Source of the DNA: Escherichia coli | Lineage (GTDB): Bacteria; Pseudomonadota; Gammaproteobacteria; Enterobacterales; Enterobacteriaceae | Direction: 5' to 3' (one strand) | NCBI RefSeq assembly: GCF_016026235.1 | Contig: NZ_CP065613.1 | DNA length: 64,000 nt | Shown: positions 23,947-32,511 of the stretch, in pieces | Layout of the letters: every line of letters starts with the position of its first letter | Numbering within the stretch: position 1 is the first letter of the stretch | Translations under genes and position numbers: made by a program | Notes under the pieces: model-generated | Told to the model about the DNA's origin: nothing | The model's input: only the letters and a program-made list of their open reading frames with translations | The model's database searches: none

Positions 23947-25001
23947 CAGAAATCCTCCTCAACATTTTTTTTCTTCCTGGCGGTAACAGGCTCGGGGAGA
24001 TAAGCATCTGCCGGGCCAACCCGTAATTCAGTCGTCGTGCCCCGGTCGTCCTGGTTATAGGTAACTTCTGCGATCACCAGTTCATCATTATCAAAATTAT
24101 TCAGCGGGTCGAAAACGATGACAGATAACCCCGGACGCCATAACGCGCCACTGCCCTGCCGCCAGCCCTGAACCGTATATGTTGTCTCACGGGTAAGCGC
24201 AGCCCGTTGGCGCGCTTCAAATTCACAACGGGCCTTACAGGTTGCTGTCGTTGCTGTGCCTGACTGCTGAATCAACAAAGGGCGATAACGGGTCACGCCA
24301 CTGTCCTGAATGGTCTGACGTATTGCGGCAATGGTGGCCTCACCAAAATCATCGTCGTTGCCCGGGCGCTGCCCACTGACCTGATATTCAGAAAACCGCT
24401 CTCTGATGCTTCTTTCCGTGTCACAGGAAAGAATATTCTCTCCCAGCACCAGCGCCGTCGCCGCTTTACCTGTTCCGGGTTTTCCCAGAACCAGTCGCCC
24501 GCATTCATCGTCATAAGCCAGCGTCTGAACCTGCCCCAGTAACCGGTTAAGACAATCGGCAACGGTTTCGCCGTGTTCCGGCTGGGCATCAATCACCGCT
24601 GTCTGCGGCACGCCAGCATCAACAACGGTGATGCCAAATGGCGCAGCCAGTTCACTGACTATTCTGAGCAGGTTTTTTCCGCTCTGCTGGAGTGGCAAAG
24701 CAGAGCAGTCAACCAGATCGGCTGTTTTGCTTCGCCCGACAATTCCCATGCTGACGCTGCTGGCGTCATAACGAAGCGGTAGTGCCTCCACATATCCGGT
24801 GAGCACAGGCTCATCCCCGATAATCACTTCAACCAGCTCACCATTTTTTATCCGGGGTTGATAATCCCGGCTTCCGGGCCAGCGGGTGGTAATGGCAACA
24901 TTAAAATCCCGGGCAATACGGTTAATGCCCGCACTGATACGGACGGATGTCCAGCCGCCCCATTCGCGACCGGAAACCCGAAGTAAAACGGTATCATTCA
25001 T
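23946..25001 (-). CDS. tail/baseplate hub protein (Mu P, gp44)
   Basis: 351 aa, gene order. Confidence 0.6.
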   Translation of the reverse strand: MNDTVLLRVSGREWGGWTSVRISAGINRIARDFNVAITTRWPGSRDYQPRIKNGELVEVIIGDEPVLTGYVEALPLRYDASSVSMGIVGRSKTADLVDCSALPLQQSGKNLLRIVSELAAPFGITVVDAGVPQTAVIDAQPEHGETVADCLNRLLGQVQTLAYDDECGRLVLGKPGTGKAATALVLGENILSCDTERSIRERFSEYQVSGQRPGNDDDFGEATIAAIRQTIQDSGVTRYRPLLIQQSGTATTATCKARCEFEARQRAALTRETTYTVQGWRQGSGALWRPGLSVIVFDPLNNFDNDELVIAEVTYNQDDRGTTTELRVGPADAYLPEPVTARKKKNVEEDF

Positions 25002-26389
25002 CTGACGGGTACCCTTAATGCCCTGACCGGAACAAAGCCCGGATGAGAGATGGCATTTCGATCCAGGATATCAGTTTCACGGGACGCATCGTCGTACCAT
25101 GACGCAGCCAGAACAAGCGCAGGCAGAACTTCCGCTGGCGTTCGCTCTGCGGTTTCCTCCGTCTGAACCAGACGCGCCTGAATATCCCGGTTCAGTTCTG
25201 TACGTAATGACGTCAGCTGAAAAAACAGCCTGTCATCCGCCGTACGCCTGAGCTCCTGTTCAATCGCCGCGTTCAGCGATTCGCGTATGATGGTGAGATT
25301 TTCCCGCGTGGGTGGTTGCGCTCTCTCATCCTGTCCTGTGCTGGCTGCCACGCTGTCAAGTGCCGGATGAGAAACGTGAATAATATCGGACTGACGTTCA
25401 GTGGAACCACCAACAGCCACAACCGCCTGCTGATTTTTCACCAGGCTTCCGGGTTGTGGCAGTGAAGTGACCGCCCTTGTGGCTTCGCTGATTGCCGTCG
25501 TCCGGATGACAGCAGCCACAAGGTTTGTCTGCTGTTTTTGCCTGATAACCGATGCGGAATCTGTGGGCCACACCGCACGCGGTGCCAGTCCTGGGTCCAG
25601 CGTAATGCCGGACATTGTCGTTATGGACTGCACCAGATCCTGTGTGTTATCCACCAGCCGGGTTCCGGCCCGCCAGGTATCCTGCAACGTATGCACAAAA
25701 TCACTGGCAACCGACGGCGGCATCAGAATGACGGATAAATCGCCCTGCAGTAGTCTCGCTCCGGCAGAAACAGCCGAATTAACCATTTTGAAAGCTGTCT
25801 GAACGGTTCCCAGCATATCGGTCGTCCGGGCAATAACATCGTTCTGAATAAAGTCCGGTATTCCCGCGAGATCAAAATCGCCGAACATGTCTTCAATCAA
25901 CTCATCCAGGAATACGGACGACTCCTCCAGTTTTCTGGCGGTTGCAGCTCCGGCGACCGGAAATGACAGTTCCCCGCTCTCAACAAACTGAAATGAAACC
26001 CGGCACATACGGCCTTCAGTGCCGGAGTGAGAAACGGTCACCTGCCCGTCAATACAGCCCTGCATTTCACCGAACTGCGGATGGATCAGCGTCCCCGGCC
26101 CGGCGGTTTCAATCGCTGTAATCAGCCTGTCGCGCTGCTCTGCGTAATCATCACCAACGAGATACGCATTAATCGTCAGCCGTCGCGTGGCACGCCCGAG
26201 ATCTTCCGTGTACGGTTTGTCACGGTTTGGGTATTCATGGACCTGAACGCGGCGTCCGAACGAACCCTCGTCGCTCTCCACCGAAAACGGAACGCCACGA
26301 AATGAAGCGTCGTAAAGATTATCGCGCCAATTGATACCTGAAGATGCAGAAAAGAGTGAAGAAAGAGAAGGTAAAGAAGGTAAGTCCAT
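24998..26389 (-). CDS. DNA circulation protein (Mu N, gp43)
   Basis: 463 aa, follows tape measure region. Confidence 0.6.
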   Translation of the reverse strand: MDLPSLPSLSSLFSASSGINWRDNLYDASFRGVPFSVESDEGSFGRRVQVHEYPNRDKPYTEDLGRATRRLTINAYLVGDDYAEQRDRLITAIETAGPGTLIHPQFGEMQGCIDGQVTVSHSGTEGRMCRVSFQFVESGELSFPVAGAATARKLEESSVFLDELIEDMFGDFDLAGIPDFIQNDVIARTTDMLGTVQTAFKMVNSAVSAGARLLQGDLSVILMPPSVASDFVHTLQDTWRAGTRLVDNTQDLVQSITTMSGITLDPGLAPRAVWPTDSASVIRQKQQTNLVAAVIRTTAISEATRAVTSLPQPGSLVKNQQAVVAVGGSTERQSDIIHVSHPALDSVAASTGQDERAQPPTRENLTIIRESLNAAIEQELRRTADDRLFFQLTSLRTELNRDIQARLVQTEETAERTPAEVLPALVLAASWYDDASRETDILDRNAISHPGFVPVRALRVPVR

Positions 26390-26399
26390 ACTGTCTCCA

Positions 26400-26428
26400 C
26401 TATAAAAAAACCGCCAATTTCTGGCGGC
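26400..26428 (-). terminator. Rho-independent terminator after lipoprotein moron
   Basis: minus-strand GCCGCCAGAAATTGGCGG hairpin followed by TTTTTTT. Confidence 0.65.
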
Positions 26429-26435
26429 TTATATA

Positions 26436-26918
26436 TTAATCATCATTAATATCTTTCATATTCAATTTGCAATTTTCGTAGGTCACTCCCGACTCGCCAT
26501 TAACATTAACTCCAGCTCTGATATTCCCGTTTTCTTTTACATCTACAAAAAACTGGCCTCTTGGCATCTTGAACGCAAATGTAAAACCAACAGTATCTGA
26601 ATCAAAATCATCATCTTTATATATTGGGATCAAAAATGTCATCGTCGCTGGTGATGCATTGTTTGCAAAATCAAATACACCTATACTTTTGCCGAATTCA
26701 TAAGAAGCTTTTCTCAATATAATCGCACCGCTGGCAGAAGGGGATGGGCACGATATCCTCAGTTGTCTGAATCCATCTGTATCCAAGTCAACGTCATTAT
26801 CTGCAGATGTTTTAACGTTACTAATAAATCGTGAAACAATCTCCTCATTTGTTAGTATTTTCGCCTGAGCACAGCAAGAGGTTAATATTGCAACCGTCAT
26901 TAAAAATGGCTTTATCAC
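26436..26918 (-). CDS. predicted lipoprotein (moron in tail module)
   Basis: 160 aa, signal peptide with lipobox LTSC, AT-rich gene with own terminator between tape measure and gp43. Confidence 0.6.
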   Translation of the reverse strand: MIKPFLMTVAILTSCCAQAKILTNEEIVSRFISNVKTSADNDVDLDTDGFRQLRISCPSPSASGAIILRKASYEFGKSIGVFDFANNASPATMTFLIPIYKDDDFDSDTVGFTFAFKMPRGQFFVDVKENGNIRAGVNVNGESGVTYENCKLNMKDINDD

Positions 26919-26985
26919 AAAACAAACTCCATTGTTAGCATGTTACGCGATAATTTTGCCTCATCTTTCACCACAAAAAAAGAAC

Positions 26986-28935
26986 TCACCTTTTAAATGG
27001 AGAATACCCAACATCATGGGTGATTTTCATAAAGGGATCGCCTGTTTTCGGCAAATCGATAACGCGCATTCCAGGCGGCGCGTTGTCAAACGTCACCTTA
27101 AGTTCGCTGCGGGTTGCCGGTGAAGATGCAAGGCTTAACAGCTGATTCCTTTCCAGTGATACATTCGGGGTGTAGCGTTTATCGGGAGATAAATACCCAT
27201 CACCACGTGGCATCTGCCATCCGGTCATGTCATAGACAAAATCATGGAACTGTTTGCCCCACTCGTCGAACTTATCATTCAGACCAAATCCACTGTTCAG
27301 TGCATCAGCCACAAAATTTTTAACAAGCCAGGGATGTTCTTTTTCAAACTCCTGCGCCATCATGCCCAGTTCAAGCAATCCACCAATCAGACTGATCTTT
27401 CCGAGGCCCTTTAATTTCAGCCCTGTTTTTCCTGCCGCCGTTGTCCATTGATTCTGGGCGACTGTTGCCGCACGAATACTTGCCACCGCCTTCACACCAA
27501 TATACAGGGCAGAAACCGTTGCTATTGTTTTTACTGCCTGTTCCCATCCCCCCATTGCTCTGACAACCTGATCAACCTCCTGCCAGACTTTTTTCACAAC
27601 CGGACCGACCGTTTCCCAGTTATCAATTATGAGATATGCACCACCGACGAGAAGCGCAATTAATCCCTTTGCCGGCGTCATATTCATCACGCTACCCATG
27701 ATTTTTGTTATGCGTGTCAATGTGCCAATCGCCACGCCCATCGTCAGTAATGCCGCACCAGTTTTCGCGATGGTTTTTACGACCTCAGGATTTTCTCTGA
27801 CAAACGTGCGCACTTCTTCCAGAAAAGGCTTCATCTCTTTTATGCCTTCATTGAGTGAAGGCAGGAAGGTTTCCCCCAGCGTGGAAGAAATCGCATTGAT
27901 CTGGTTCTGCAGCAGCAACAACTGATTTTCTGTCGTCGCGGCACGGGCGGCATATTCTTTCTGCATTGAGCCGCCATACTGCTGCGCATCCGCCACACGA
28001 TTAAAGTTGGTTCGCAACAAATCCAGATTCGTGAGCAGCGGCGCAATGGCCCCCAGGGATTCCTTCCCGAACAGCGCTTTCAGCACAGCAGCCTGTTTTT
28101 CTTTCGGCACTTTTGCCAGAGAATCCAGTACGTGCAGCATGGCCCCGCGGGCGTCTTTCTGCATATCCGCCGCCAGTTTTTTCGGGCTAATGCGCAACGA
28201 GCGGAGCACTTTTTTCTGCGATTTGGTGGCAGAATCCCTCGCTGTCAGCGACAACATAAAATTCTTTATCCCCGTCGCAGCAATTTCTGACTCCACCCCC
28301 ATTCCGGCAATGGTTGCCCCCATTGCGGCAATCTCTCCGGAGGCCACACCCGCAACACTGCCTAAAGGGCCAATACGGGTCACAACATCAGAAATCTTTT
28401 TCGCACTTGCAGGACCGGTATTGCCAAGATAGTTAATCTTATCCGCAAGCCCTGCCACCTCTCCCTGTGTCAGTTTAAAGGCAGTGCGCCACTGCGCCAT
28501 CATCTGACCGGATTCTTCTGCCGTGGTGTCAAAGGCCACGCCCATCTTCACGGCATCGTCAGTAAACTGCATCAGCTCGTCACGGGCGATACCAGCCTGA
28601 CCACCCGCCGCCACAATTTCGGCGATACCTTCCGCCGACATGGGCAGTTCTGTTGACAGGTCGCGCACCTGCTCCGTCATTGCCTTAAACGCTTCCGGCG
28701 TATCCAGACCATCCACCACTTTCCGGACATCCGCCATTTTTGATTCAAGGGCAATGGCAGATTTGACCGGGAGCGCCAGCGCCCCCAGTACTGCGGTTCC
28801 GGCACCCGCTGCGCCCAGTGACAGGCTGGCAAACTCCTTTTTAAAACCTTTCAGCTGGCGCTGCATTCCCTTCAGCGGTGCCGATACCTTATCCACGGCA
28901 GTGATGATCGCCTTCAGCTGAAAACTGTCAGCCAT
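26986..28935 (-). CDS. tail tape measure protein
   Basis: 649 aa, Ala/Gly-rich helical, position after tube and chaperone. Confidence 0.8.
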   Translation of the reverse strand: MADSFQLKAIITAVDKVSAPLKGMQRQLKGFKKEFASLSLGAAGAGTAVLGALALPVKSAIALESKMADVRKVVDGLDTPEAFKAMTEQVRDLSTELPMSAEGIAEIVAAGGQAGIARDELMQFTDDAVKMGVAFDTTAEESGQMMAQWRTAFKLTQGEVAGLADKINYLGNTGPASAKKISDVVTRIGPLGSVAGVASGEIAAMGATIAGMGVESEIAATGIKNFMLSLTARDSATKSQKKVLRSLRISPKKLAADMQKDARGAMLHVLDSLAKVPKEKQAAVLKALFGKESLGAIAPLLTNLDLLRTNFNRVADAQQYGGSMQKEYAARAATTENQLLLLQNQINAISSTLGETFLPSLNEGIKEMKPFLEEVRTFVRENPEVVKTIAKTGAALLTMGVAIGTLTRITKIMGSVMNMTPAKGLIALLVGGAYLIIDNWETVGPVVKKVWQEVDQVVRAMGGWEQAVKTIATVSALYIGVKAVASIRAATVAQNQWTTAAGKTGLKLKGLGKISLIGGLLELGMMAQEFEKEHPWLVKNFVADALNSGFGLNDKFDEWGKQFHDFVYDMTGWQMPRGDGYLSPDKRYTPNVSLERNQLLSLASSPATRSELKVTFDNAPPGMRVIDLPKTGDPFMKITHDVGYSPFKR

Positions 28936-29355: not shown

Positions 29356-29711
29356 TACTGATACCCTCCCTCTTCGCCGTGGAATTCAAGATCTGCCGTG
29401 CCTTCTTCGGCATTATGATTAGCCTCTCCGTGCAGCCATGCCGCCGAAAGCACATACACCATGCCGTTTGCCAGCTCAGCGGTAATCGTCATCTGGTCTG
29501 AGGTGGTAATTTTGTCGACCGGAAAGTTTTTGGGCACTTTAAACGTGCCCTTAACGTAAGGTGACCGCCAGGTCTCCTTGTAATCCACATCCCCTGCCAT
29601 GCCGACGATGTCATCCCGGACATTGGTGTTCATCGGCACTTCAATGCCACCTGTCAGCGATAACTGCTGACCATCCACTTTAAAAAAACAGGTTCCGGCG
29701 ATCTTTGCCAT
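29355..29711 (-). CDS. tail tube protein
   Basis: 118 aa immediately after sheath. Confidence 0.7.
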   Translation of the reverse strand: MAKIAGTCFFKVDGQQLSLTGGIEVPMNTNVRDDIVGMAGDVDYKETWRSPYVKGTFKVPKNFPVDKITTSDQMTITAELANGMVYVLSAAWLHGEANHNAEEGTADLEFHGEEGGYQ

Positions 29712-30763
29712 TATGCTGACTCCTCTGAATACTGAAGACGGAACTGGTTAACCACCGCAAAGACACGTAACTGATTAACATAATCCGGCGGGAACAGCGT
29801 ATTCAGTCGGTTCGGGTTATCTGCATCACGCTCAACTATCAGATACTGTTTAAACAGATCGTAATTTTCCACAATACCGGCACGCTCCATCTGACGATAT
29901 GTCGCCAGAAGTTCCCCTTTGATAACGGCAGGAGTGACAATCGCCTGCCCCGGACCAAAACGGGTACCATCATTTGCCAGCTTGTGACGTCCGTACTTGC
30001 TTGTGATGACCGATTTCAGTTTGCGAAGAACATATGCACTGGTATGCAGAGTTTCACTGTCCAGATAGCTGTTGTCTGCCACGCCATACGCATTCTTTTT
30101 GTAGGTGGTTACGGAACGCTGGATCTGCAACGTGCCGCCTTCCACATAAGCCGTCGCCACGCCGTGAGATAAAAGGGTCTGCTGCTCTGTCATGATGAAT
30201 CGCTTACCTTTCGGTGCCGGAAGCATCCCCACCAGCTCCCCCGTCTGTGTCGGACGGGCAGGATCATTCCGGATAAATACCGCTTCACGGGCAAGGCGAC
30301 TGGCAACCAGTTCATCGACAGGCGACTGGGTTTCTTTTTCGTAACCGGCAAGCGTGATATGTTGCTGATTATGCATATCTCCGGCACCAACCAGCTCTGA
30401 CAGCGTTCCCAGTTTTGCGGTATAGACATGCCCGTATAACTGGCGCGCATAACTCCAGCGACCGCTGCTGTCATTCATTTCGGTCATCATCATATTGATG
30501 GAGGCGGCATCGTTGAACGGCAGACCGATAAAGTCGAATGCCTCATCGCCCATAGCAGCAACAGCGGCGGTAAGATCAGGCGCTCCGCTATCGGCAGCAC
30601 CGACTTCCGTCACCACCCGAAGCCCTGCTGGCAGAATCTCACCACCACCAGAACCATAATAATTCAGACAGACCGGTAACTCATTACCATACAGCCCCTT
30701 ATGACGGGCAGTCAGCGTCACCACGCCTGCATCAGATGACGCCGTAAACGGCAGGGTGATAAC
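29711..30763 (-). pseudogene. contractile tail sheath protein, 3' portion (gene split by IS insertion)
   Basis: reading frame continues the 5' portion at 32058..32511 across the IS; 9-10 bp target duplication GGGTGATAAC at both junctions. Confidence 0.8.
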
Positions 30764-32057
30764 CTGAGGAATCCCCAGAAAACAAGACAGGCATAGTGAG
30801 ATGTGATCTAATTGATTGTGCTAACAATTTCAAGGAGATCACCACTATGCCTGCACGTTCATTATGCCAAAATTTCCTTAACAATATACTGGCCCCTTTG
30901 CATCTTTACCGTCAAAAATCACTGATTGACGCAACTAATGCTGTAATAAATGGCGCTTCCCTCACACTTACCAGTATCGGGCGTCATTTAACCGGTACGG
31001 CATCAGTTAAAAACAAAATAAAGCGGGTGGATCGACTGTTGGGGAATCGACATTTGCAAAATGAGGTTTCCACCATTTTTCAGCGAATTACCCAAAAGAT
31101 TACGCGGGGAATGTCTCGTGTTGTGATACTCATTGACTGGAGTGCTTATCATGCCTCTCGTTTTCAGCTTTTGCGGGCAAGCCTGGCATGTGACGGGCGT
31201 TCTTTACCGTTGATGAGTTGTGTCGTTCCATCATCACAGACAGCGAATGCAGATGTACATGAGCGTTTTCTGGAATCGCTTGCTGAGTGCTTTTCCCCCG
31301 GGACTGATGTCATTGTTATTACAGATGCCGGTTTTCAGGGGCGATGGTTCCAACAGCTCCGCTCCCGTGGCTGGACCTATATTTGCCGGGTACTGGGCAA
31401 TCATTATTACAATGTTGGTAATGGCTGGGAAAAGGTGTCGGACTCAGGCACAAAAGCATCAACGACAGCAATTTATTTAGGTGAAGGCCTGCTGGGTCGA
31501 GATAAAAATGCACAACATGAAGGGCATTTTTATCTTTATAAAAGTAAGCCTAAAGGTCGTAGATTTAAACGCTCGAAGGAAAGAGCAACCAGACCATCGG
31601 TGACGGCTAAAGCTCGTACTGCCGGGAAATCACCATGGTTTATTTTCACAAACAGTACTGAGTTCTCGCCAAAACAGGTAATGAAATTATACAGCCGTAG
31701 AATGCAAATTGAGCAAAATTTCAGGGATGAAAAAAATCCTCGCTGGGGATTTGGACTACGGTTTGGTGCCAGTCATTCATCCGGGCGGGTCACGGTATTG
31801 AGTCTGATCGCAACATTAGCCAGTATCATTATGTGGTTAAGCGGTTTCAGCCTGGAAAACAAAGGGATACATCATAAATATCAGGCAAATACAGTGAAGC
31901 ACAGGCGAGTCATCTCGTTATTAAAACTGGCGGAGAATGTGATTCGACATTCTCCACTCATACTAAACACACTGTCACTTGACGCAGGGCTGAAAGTTCT
32001 ACAGCAACGGTATACCAATATGATAATGGTTTACTAAATTTTCTGGGGATCCCTCAG
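30764..32057 (+). mobile_element. IS4-family insertion sequence, IS10-like ends, copy 1
   Basis: 1294 bp, terminal inverted repeats CTGAGGAATCCCCAGAAAAC / CTGAGGGATCCCCAGAAAAT, flanking direct repeat. Confidence 0.85.
30847..32037 (+). CDS. IS4-family (IS10-like) transposase
   Basis: 396 aa; RIDRLLGNRHL-like and YSRRMQIEQNFRDxK motifs recalled from IS10 transposase; AAGGAG RBS. Confidence 0.85.
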   Translation: MPARSLCQNFLNNILAPLHLYRQKSLIDATNAVINGASLTLTSIGRHLTGTASVKNKIKRVDRLLGNRHLQNEVSTIFQRITQKITRGMSRVVILIDWSAYHASRFQLLRASLACDGRSLPLMSCVVPSSQTANADVHERFLESLAECFSPGTDVIVITDAGFQGRWFQQLRSRGWTYICRVLGNHYYNVGNGWEKVSDSGTKASTTAIYLGEGLLGRDKNAQHEGHFYLYKSKPKGRRFKRSKERATRPSVTAKARTAGKSPWFIFTNSTEFSPKQVMKLYSRRMQIEQNFRDEKNPRWGFGLRFGASHSSGRVTVLSLIATLASIIMWLSGFSLENKGIHHKYQANTVKHRRVISLLKLAENVIRHSPLILNTLSLDAGLKVLQQRYTNMIMVY

Positions 32058-32511
32058 GGGTGATAACCCCGTTTACCGCTTCCTTAATCGCGGTGGCAAC
32101 CGCAGTGGCATCATCGCCATTCACCACAGGCACCTGTACACGGGAGCGCCCGACATACAGACTCAGGGTGCCGCTTTCCTCTGCTTCTCCGGCAACCGTC
32201 ACCCTGACCGTCGCCGCCGCCCCTCTGGCTTCCGGTACTGCAATAACATACAGTTCACCGAAAGGATCTGTCTGACGGTAGACTTCCACCATACGCGCCA
32301 GCTGGCTCCCCGCCCCACAAATCTGGCGGGCATAATCTGCCGATGGCATCAGCACCAGGCTGTTAACCTCAATGGCTGCATCGTTGCTGGCATGCCCGAT
32401 CAGTAATGCAGGCGCGCTGGTCACCGCTGTATTTGCCGCAGAATTGTTCATCTCGGCGTAGAACAACGGCACCAGCGTATTCGACGGAACAGTATTAAAA
32501 CTTATCGTCAT
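32058..32511 (-). pseudogene. contractile tail sheath protein, 5' portion
   Basis: MTISFNTVPSNTLVPLFYAEM... N-terminus; frame runs into the IS end. Confidence 0.8.

Follow-up and report, generated by a model that had tools for sequence, protein, structure and literature searches.

Why should the tail operon of a contractile-tailed prophage contain an AT-rich gene for an exported protein, followed at once by a terminator-like hairpin? This question is raised by a 64,000-nucleotide stretch of the Escherichia coli genome (NCBI RefSeq assembly GCF_016026235.1, contig NZ_CP065613.1), which is referred to in its entirety as the window. It carries a prophage of the phiP27 type, whose regulatory region is lambdoid and whose contractile tail is of the Mu type. 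The gene in question, here called X (26436..26918, minus strand), encodes a 160-residue exported protein of PHROG 5586, a family of unknown function. It is flanked by the genes for the tail tape measure protein (TMP; 649 aa, 26986..28935, minus strand; phrog_28, E 1e-144) and for a baseplate hub of the Mu gp43/DNA-circulation type (463 aa, 24998..26389, minus strand; phrog_184, E 7e-135). Taken alone, X is a typical prophage accessory gene and thus a modest finding. The more useful result is that the TMP|gp43 junction is a hotspot for unrelated cargo genes, with the TMP gene as its left and the gp43-like gene as its right border.

A cargo slot between the tape measure and hub genes

In phage phiP27, the TMP stop codon and the gp43 start are separated by 15 nt and X is missing, with both flanks at 96% nucleotide identity to the window and the flanking proteins at 96-98%. 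Among 49 complete E. coli genomes carrying a window-type junction, X is present in 10, and a second clade of X, about 50% identical and found in phage vB_EcoM-720R4 and about 101 E. coli genomes, displays the same clean pattern of presence and absence. Since X is missing from phiP27 and from most near-identical modules, it is dispensable for tail building and, judged from these sequence comparisons, is a non-virion protein. A preliminary description of the locus had suggested this very comparison of related prophages, and X indeed proved to be variably present between near-identical flanks. Its homologs are not conserved structural tail components of Mu-like phages: they share the junction, but about half of the related modules lack cargo and others contain unrelated cargo.

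The extent of this variation became apparent when IMG/VR was searched with an alignment of gp43. The best 80 of at least 579 loci, a non-random sample whose proportions are indicative, were combined with reference loci to give 58 distinct junction sequences. Seven of them are minimal (0-38 nt, no hairpin) and 15 contain a GC hairpin and T-run alone (gap of 0-50 nt as called), making 22 junctions without cargo; hairpins were counted in the TMP-gp43 gap itself, leaving out the TMP coding sequence. The remaining 36 were scored as having an insert of 370-1570 nt, in one case (L053) because the TMP end was mis-called. The GC content of the inserts lies between 0.32 and 0.42 in all cases except L053 and L035 (both 0.49), and 30 of the 36 inserts end in the same kind of hairpin. 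Cargo other than X is found in about 24 of the 58 junction types, and the junction holds about 14 unrelated cargo families in total, X included. We found no description of it as a hotspot in the literature searched. One hit, H41, was rejected as alternative cargo because it represents a deletion fusing the gp43 gene to the capsid gene.

Nearly all cargo families have signal peptides, lipoboxes or membrane anchors. They comprise two to three lipoproteins (with lipoboxes LAGC, LSGC and LLGGC), several signal-peptide proteins, antisense membrane-anchored proteins and a HIRAN-domain gene. An AT-rich family of 176 aa with an N-terminal membrane anchor (WP_000679479; PHROG 5485, no Pfam match) is encoded at L018 (2879..3409; E. 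coli S51) as well as at L019, L073, L078 and L083-L095. With the 720R4 query, the match was confined to the gp43 start in about 1000 complete E. coli genomes. Both of the two that were examined carry this cargo, and on the order of a thousand complete genomes of E. coli appear to have the family. Next to it, the slot of L073 contains an ORF of the IS200/IS605 TnpA type (2870..3379; judged by eye), which suggests one route of slot remodelling. To gauge the envelope bias, the plus-strand ORFs of these loci that span 100 aa or more served as a control, with X and the 176-aa family left aside: a strongly hydrophobic N-terminus was found in 10 of 323 distinct ORFs, and 8 of these 10 are junction cargo.

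Some of the cargo genes are oriented antisense to the tail operon (L089/L099, 2944..3390, minus strand; L097, 2965..3402, minus strand) and therefore need promoters of their own, so that the slot hosts autonomous units. The L089-type protein matches PHROG 8545, labelled 'superinfection exclusion Sie-like' (E 1.5e-49), and combines an N-terminal membrane anchor with a Pfam tRNA_anti-like domain (OB fold). At L015, a HIRAN-domain ORF (2387..3423; weak PADLOC PDC-M03B matches) lies between the TMP gene and an X homolog, and L055 contains two apparently cytoplasmic cargo ORFs (2522..3480). The slot can thus take more than one gene and does not accommodate envelope proteins exclusively.

The hairpin marks the downstream end of this slot. 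In the window, AAGCCGCCAGAAATTGGCGG and the following T7 (26401..26430, minus strand; dG about -14 kcal/mol) end 2 nt ahead of the GGAG (26395..26398) of the gp43-like gene and 11 nt ahead of its ATG, so that the arrangement given in the preliminary description, with X between the tape measure and gp43-like genes and a hairpin plus T7 behind it, agrees with the coordinates. The hairpin had also been taken for a terminator of X's own, a view that does not hold: the same hairpin occurs after X, after unrelated cargo and, by itself, in the 15 cargo-less junction types, and sequences such as CCCGCTTCGGCGGG-T7 and CCCACTTCGGTGGG-T7 are common to all three settings. At L025, which is free of cargo, it equals the hairpin after X in L007 except for one loop base. 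L021, whose gp43 is 96% identical to that of the window, contains an unrelated 151-aa lipoprotein (LAGC), and the hairpin behind it is almost the same as in the window. Because the hairpin is common to X, unrelated cargo and absent cargo, we conclude that cargo inserts between the TMP stop codon and a hairpin that is resident at the junction. A GC hairpin, often with a UUCG loop, and a T-run are seen between the TMP and gp43 genes in the cargo-free loci L025, L028, L042, L047, L050 and others. Rfam searches of the region returned sub-threshold matches alone, caused by the terminator hairpin. This element, which resembles an intrinsic terminator and stands midway in a tail operon, could attenuate transcription, stabilise the RNA or serve as an insulator.

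X is an old inhabitant of this slot rather than a recent arrival. Homologs with 74, 49, 43 and 38% identity all occupy the TMP|gp43 junction, and the identities of X and gp43 to their window counterparts go together in Yersinia (74% and 68%), 720R4 (49% and 52%) and L005 (43% and 53%), with the weakest agreement in L007 (38% and 68%). The preliminary description had noted that X is far more AT-rich than its neighbours, and its GC content of 0.369 (0.311 at third codon positions) indeed contrasts with 0.52-0.55 in all adjoining tail genes. A value of 0.34-0.40 recurs in all tail-module copies, independent of the GC content of the neighbours. Since X has co-diverged with gp43 and TMP and is AT-rich in every tail-module copy, its AT-richness is maintained and not the scar of a recent transfer. 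Seen against the Juhala/Hendrix definition of a moron (PMC3594210), the earlier assignment of X to this class is thus supported by its absence from close relatives and its deviant composition, whereas the terminator claimed for it is not its own.

Distant homologs (24-29% identity) are found outside tail modules, in plasmid-prophage-like contigs near RepA, ParA, toxin-antitoxin and repressor genes, and the two copies measured (L008 and L009) are not AT-rich. This plasmid-maintenance-type setting would count in favor of a function of X that is independent of the tail. An avian pathogenic E. coli harbors a P27-type tail module with a 720R4-type X on a conjugative plasmid of 204 kb (H46; NZ_CP126947.1 185574..187074), and in another strain (H45; NZ_CM168021.1) an IS1 is inserted within the stretch used as the 720R4 query (TMP 3' end, X and gp43 5' end). 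Phage vB_EcoM-720R4 was not mentioned in any paper found, and no P27-type prophage is covered in a transcriptome paper on the LF82 prophages.

Export and predicted fold of X

The reading frame of X starts with GTG, 8 nt downstream of a GGAG ribosome-binding site (26927..26930, minus strand), and RefSeq annotates the same start in an E. coli copy with 99% identity (WP_032245164.1). No second ORF of at least 50 aa was found inside the region on either strand. The match of the protein to PHROG 5586 spans its entire length (E 1e-88), and a comparison with the 74%-identical Yersinia copy gives a dN/dS of 0.09, values that mark X as a genuine gene subject to purifying selection. Homologs down to about 25% identity were traced by two indexed searches and an exhaustive HMM search of protein sets comprising 5.8 and 1.8 billion sequences, which yielded about 20 family representatives, none of them informatively named. 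Full-length members have about 150-175 aa, and C57 and C150 are invariant in all 10 of the aligned full-length homologs. Carriers include Shigella prophages and those of Shiga toxin-producing (STEC) and enterotoxigenic (ETEC) E. coli, the sequence cluster of X at 99% identity bears a name from Shigella flexneri, and the family extends to Citrobacter, Enterobacter, Pantoea and metagenome phages. Among PHROGs, 5586 was the sole match, with no relation to HK97 gp15, Cor or Llp. Pfam gave no match for X or 10 family members at E<=0.1 and none to Bor or other families even at E<=10; NCBIfam and PADLOC returned nothing meaningful, and a PDB sequence search with the family profile was without a match.

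An N-terminal signal peptide is present in every full-length homolog, in line with the exported product that had been predicted from the window sequence. In the window, it corresponds to residues 1-19 (MIKPFLMTVAILTSCCAQA; 26862..26918, minus strand) and contains the lipobox LTSC (26874..26885, minus strand). The preliminary description had accordingly classified X as a lipoprotein. The N-terminus (MIKPFLMTVAILTSC) does conform to PROSITE rule PS51257, which demands a basic n-region, an uncharged h-region and a lipobox [LVI][ASTVI][GAS]C with its cysteine at position 15-35: there is a lysine in the first 7 residues, followed by 6 uncharged residues and ILTS-C, with the cysteine at position 15. 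Thus, MIKPFLMTVAILTS-C15 passes the rule, as does the E. coli MliC protein used as a control. X also has an A-x-A signal-peptidase-I site, AQA|K, after residue 19; its product begins MIKPFLMTVAILTSCCAQA|KIL. The lipobox cysteine is limited to the E. coli/Shigella clade and the Yersinia copy (LISC), whereas the remaining clades have A-x-A|K signal-peptidase-I sites that align with the AQA|K of the window protein. With a lipobox in the closest clade only and signal-peptidase-I signals elsewhere, the trait of the family is export, and lipidation, as judged from the N-terminal sequences, would be at most a clade-specific addition. The Yersinia copy (L002 5975..6003, Yersinia enterocolitica) is out of frame with its ATG/MKK start at an A6 run and, with the 1-nt slip repaired to A7, reads MKKTYLLVFMMLISCC; the slip could stem from an error in sequencing, from mutational decay or from a tract prone to slippage.

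A first structural model of X, obtained from 5 sequences with the signal peptide included, was discarded (pLDDT 49.5). The AlphaFold model of the mature protein, based on an alignment of 13 sequences, reached a pLDDT of 88.8 and a pTM of 0.84 and superimposes on the corresponding AFDB model with a TM score of 0.99. It consists of an N-terminal helix and eight beta strands, which, in this model, form an eight-stranded antiparallel closed calycin-like barrel. C57 follows strand 1 and C150 is located in strand 8. Since both are neighbours in the closed barrel, a disulfide bond between them is plausible and probably formed. The fold matches are generic barrels, with no informative relatives and neither Cor nor Llp among them.

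Within the prophage, the sheath and tube genes precede the TMP gene and the baseplate genes follow the gp43-like hub gene. The tail sheath gene (29711..32511) is split by an ORF for an IS4-family transposase (30796..32037, plus strand) into an N-terminal part (31999..32511, minus strand) and a C-terminal part (29711..30724, minus strand). Because of this interruption the prophage is defective, with X and the remaining tail genes intact. A separate lysis cassette with a spanin is also present. Just beyond the tail-fibre end of the prophage lies a gene for an IpaH-family type III effector E3 ligase (16200..17543, plus strand), which suggests that the chromosome is that of a Shigella.

A possible role in superinfection exclusion

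What could an exported barrel contribute to a prophage whose tail assembles without it? Our preferred answer is exclusion of superinfecting phages at the level of the cell envelope, to which we assign a probability of about 40%. The preliminary description had named exclusion or lysogenic conversion as the pattern that X fits, and both are plausible. X would be exported by the Sec pathway and, in the window clade, probably be lipid-anchored at Cys15 or otherwise be cleaved after AQA. On the periplasmic side of the envelope, it could then bind a host entry factor or the incoming tail tip and thereby stop the DNA delivery of other phages. Late transcripts, for their part, would read past the hairpin into the baseplate genes, and we infer by analogy with lambdoid phages that the Q-like antiterminator of the same prophage (43873..44562, minus strand) lets them cross it. 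Linkage to the TMP and hub genes would keep the exclusion factor together with the type of injection machinery that it recognises. In this scheme, we infer both the time of X expression and the target of exclusion. Counted in its favor are the export signal, the dispensability of X, the envelope bias of the slot, the Sie-like alternative cargo and the carrier-state-type setting of the distant homologs. A precedent exists in the moron gp15 of phage HK97, an exclusion protein that is encoded in the tail operon beside the TMP gene (PMC3594210).

Several observations weigh against this proposal. The AT-rich stretch of 67 nt that separates X from the TMP stop codon (26919..26985, minus strand) contains no consensus sigma-70 promoter, nor do the corresponding regions in four other tail-module contexts with diverged copies of X, as assessed by a tool scan and a relaxed hexamer scan, which weak or activator-dependent promoters could escape. 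A block shared by the window and Yersinia spacers (GGCAAAATT) did not resolve as a promoter. Since no promoter was found, expression of X in the lysogen is conjectural, and X may be made from the late operon only. Its co-divergence with gp43 and TMP would also be compatible with a function connected to the tail of the phage itself. As for the Sie-like label, it is an annotation and belongs to another, unrelated cargo protein. Finally, X resembles no known exclusion protein in searches of PHROGs, Pfam, NCBIfam, PADLOC and PDB sequences, and its fold matches are limited to generic barrels.

If exclusion is indeed its role, it is tempting to extend the idea to the whole slot and to view the TMP|gp43 junction of phiP27-type prophages as a dedicated site for envelope-acting exclusion proteins, each linked to the injection machinery (TMP and hub) that it targets. 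X would then represent a new class, a calycin-like barrel of the periplasm by which the tip of an incoming contractile tail is caught on its passage through this compartment. We put this broader proposal forward as a speculation that is unlikely to hold. In any case, the slot is easily located. It extends from the TMP stop codon to a conserved UUCG-loop hairpin, in prophages widespread among E. coli, Shigella, Salmonella and their relatives. Its cargo constitutes a compact set of candidates for envelope-level phage exclusion or lysogenic conversion, and junctions with cargo, with the hairpin alone or with nothing provide a natural experiment on a terminator inside a tail operon.

Among the alternatives, the one that survives best is that X serves lysogenic conversion, as an envelope protein that promotes fitness or virulence of the host in gut or tissue without any effect on phages, comparable to the lambda proteins Bor (serum resistance) and Lom (adhesion). 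Such roles are frequent among morons (PMC3594210), and they would fit an exported, possibly outer-membrane-anchored protein that is found in Shigella, STEC and ETEC prophages and has stayed intact in a prophage with an IS-broken sheath gene. However, Pfam does not connect X with Bor or another family, the enrichment in pathogens may mirror genome sampling, the family is also present in Citrobacter, Enterobacter, Pantoea and metagenome phages, and the other cargo of the hotspot includes a Sie-like family. On balance, we consider this explanation unlikely.

Two further proposals appear rather improbable to us. According to the first, X is a periplasmic inhibitor or immunity barrel directed against a peptidoglycan hydrolase, a protease or a toxin, like MliC/PliC or the immunity proteins of type VI secretion systems (T6SS). 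Homology to the MliC/PliC lysozyme inhibitors (PF09864) was rejected, because an hhalign comparison of the family profile with E. coli MliC gave a probability of 0.2%, Pfam returned no MliC match and PliC-type fold matches scored lower than unrelated barrels. Moreover, the SASGA motif of X, located directly after strand 1, is not colinear with the SxSGAxY loop of MliC. Should the inhibited enzyme be that of an incoming phage, this proposal would merge with exclusion. The second assumes that X is a late helper of the lytic cycle, made solely from the late tail transcript and acting in the periplasm of the dying cell, either by masking receptors against the loss of progeny on debris, a second role proposed for T5 Llp, or by tuning lysis. 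It is consistent with the lack of a detectable promoter, the distance of only 16 nt between the TMP stop codon and the X start in L007, the location of X upstream of the hairpin, which would make it the last gene of the sheath-to-TMP transcript, and its co-divergence with the tail genes. It is at odds with the distant homologs in plasmid-maintenance regions, where expression in the carrier state is to be expected, with the antisense cargo of the hotspot, which cannot be driven by the late operon, and with the separate lysis cassette of the prophage.

A structural or assembly function in the Mu-type tail, suggested by the co-diverging homologs between TMP and gp43 in diverged modules, is contradicted by the cleavable export signal of all homologs, the absence of X from phiP27 and about 80% of the E. 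coli prophages with near-identical flanks and the unrelated proteins, or nothing, in the slot of related modules, making it highly improbable.

Relation to known systems

Returning to exclusion, one of the nearest functional precedents is HK97 gp15 (Juhala et al., 2000; Cumby et al., 2012; reviewed in PMC3594210). Like X, its gene is an extra gene of deviant composition in the tail operon near TMP, missing from close relatives, and encodes an envelope protein, which excludes phages at the DNA-entry step. The two proteins have no sequence relationship, and gp15 is a small, YebO-like inner-membrane protein with a mapped promoter, whereas X is an exported beta-barrel of 160 aa with no promoter detected. 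The lipoproteins Cor (phi80/N15/T1) and Llp (T5), to which the preliminary description had likened X, are small phage envelope proteins encoded among or near tail genes, and the clade of X in the window shares a lipobox with them. The resemblance does not extend to kinship by sequence or fold: neither the PHROG and Pfam searches nor the fold comparison produced a match, X has roughly twice their size, most of its homologs are not lipoproteins, and it adjoins the TMP and hub genes instead of being next to a receptor-binding protein.

In terms of mechanism, the proposed action of X on the incoming tail tip in the periplasm places it in the same class as the other near precedent, Spackle of phage T4, a soluble periplasmic exclusion protein that inhibits the tail lysozyme of incoming phages. 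Spackle is helical, unlike the beta-barrel of X; it is not among the fold matches, and the comparison with PHROGs showed no lytic domain in the P27-type TMP. MliC and PliC share with X an architecture of small, eight-stranded periplasmic barrels, a mixture of lipoprotein and soluble members and cysteines near the first and last strands.

The slot itself, finally, is reminiscent of the accessory-gene and defence hotspots of temperate phages such as P2 and P4, in which a fixed site between conserved core genes likewise accommodates many unrelated, AT-rich cargo alternatives; hyper-variability hotspots have also been surveyed (e.g., bioRxiv 10.1101/2024.10.15.618418). The TMP|gp43 slot differs in that it lies inside a tail operon and accepts cargo that is almost exclusively targeted to the envelope.
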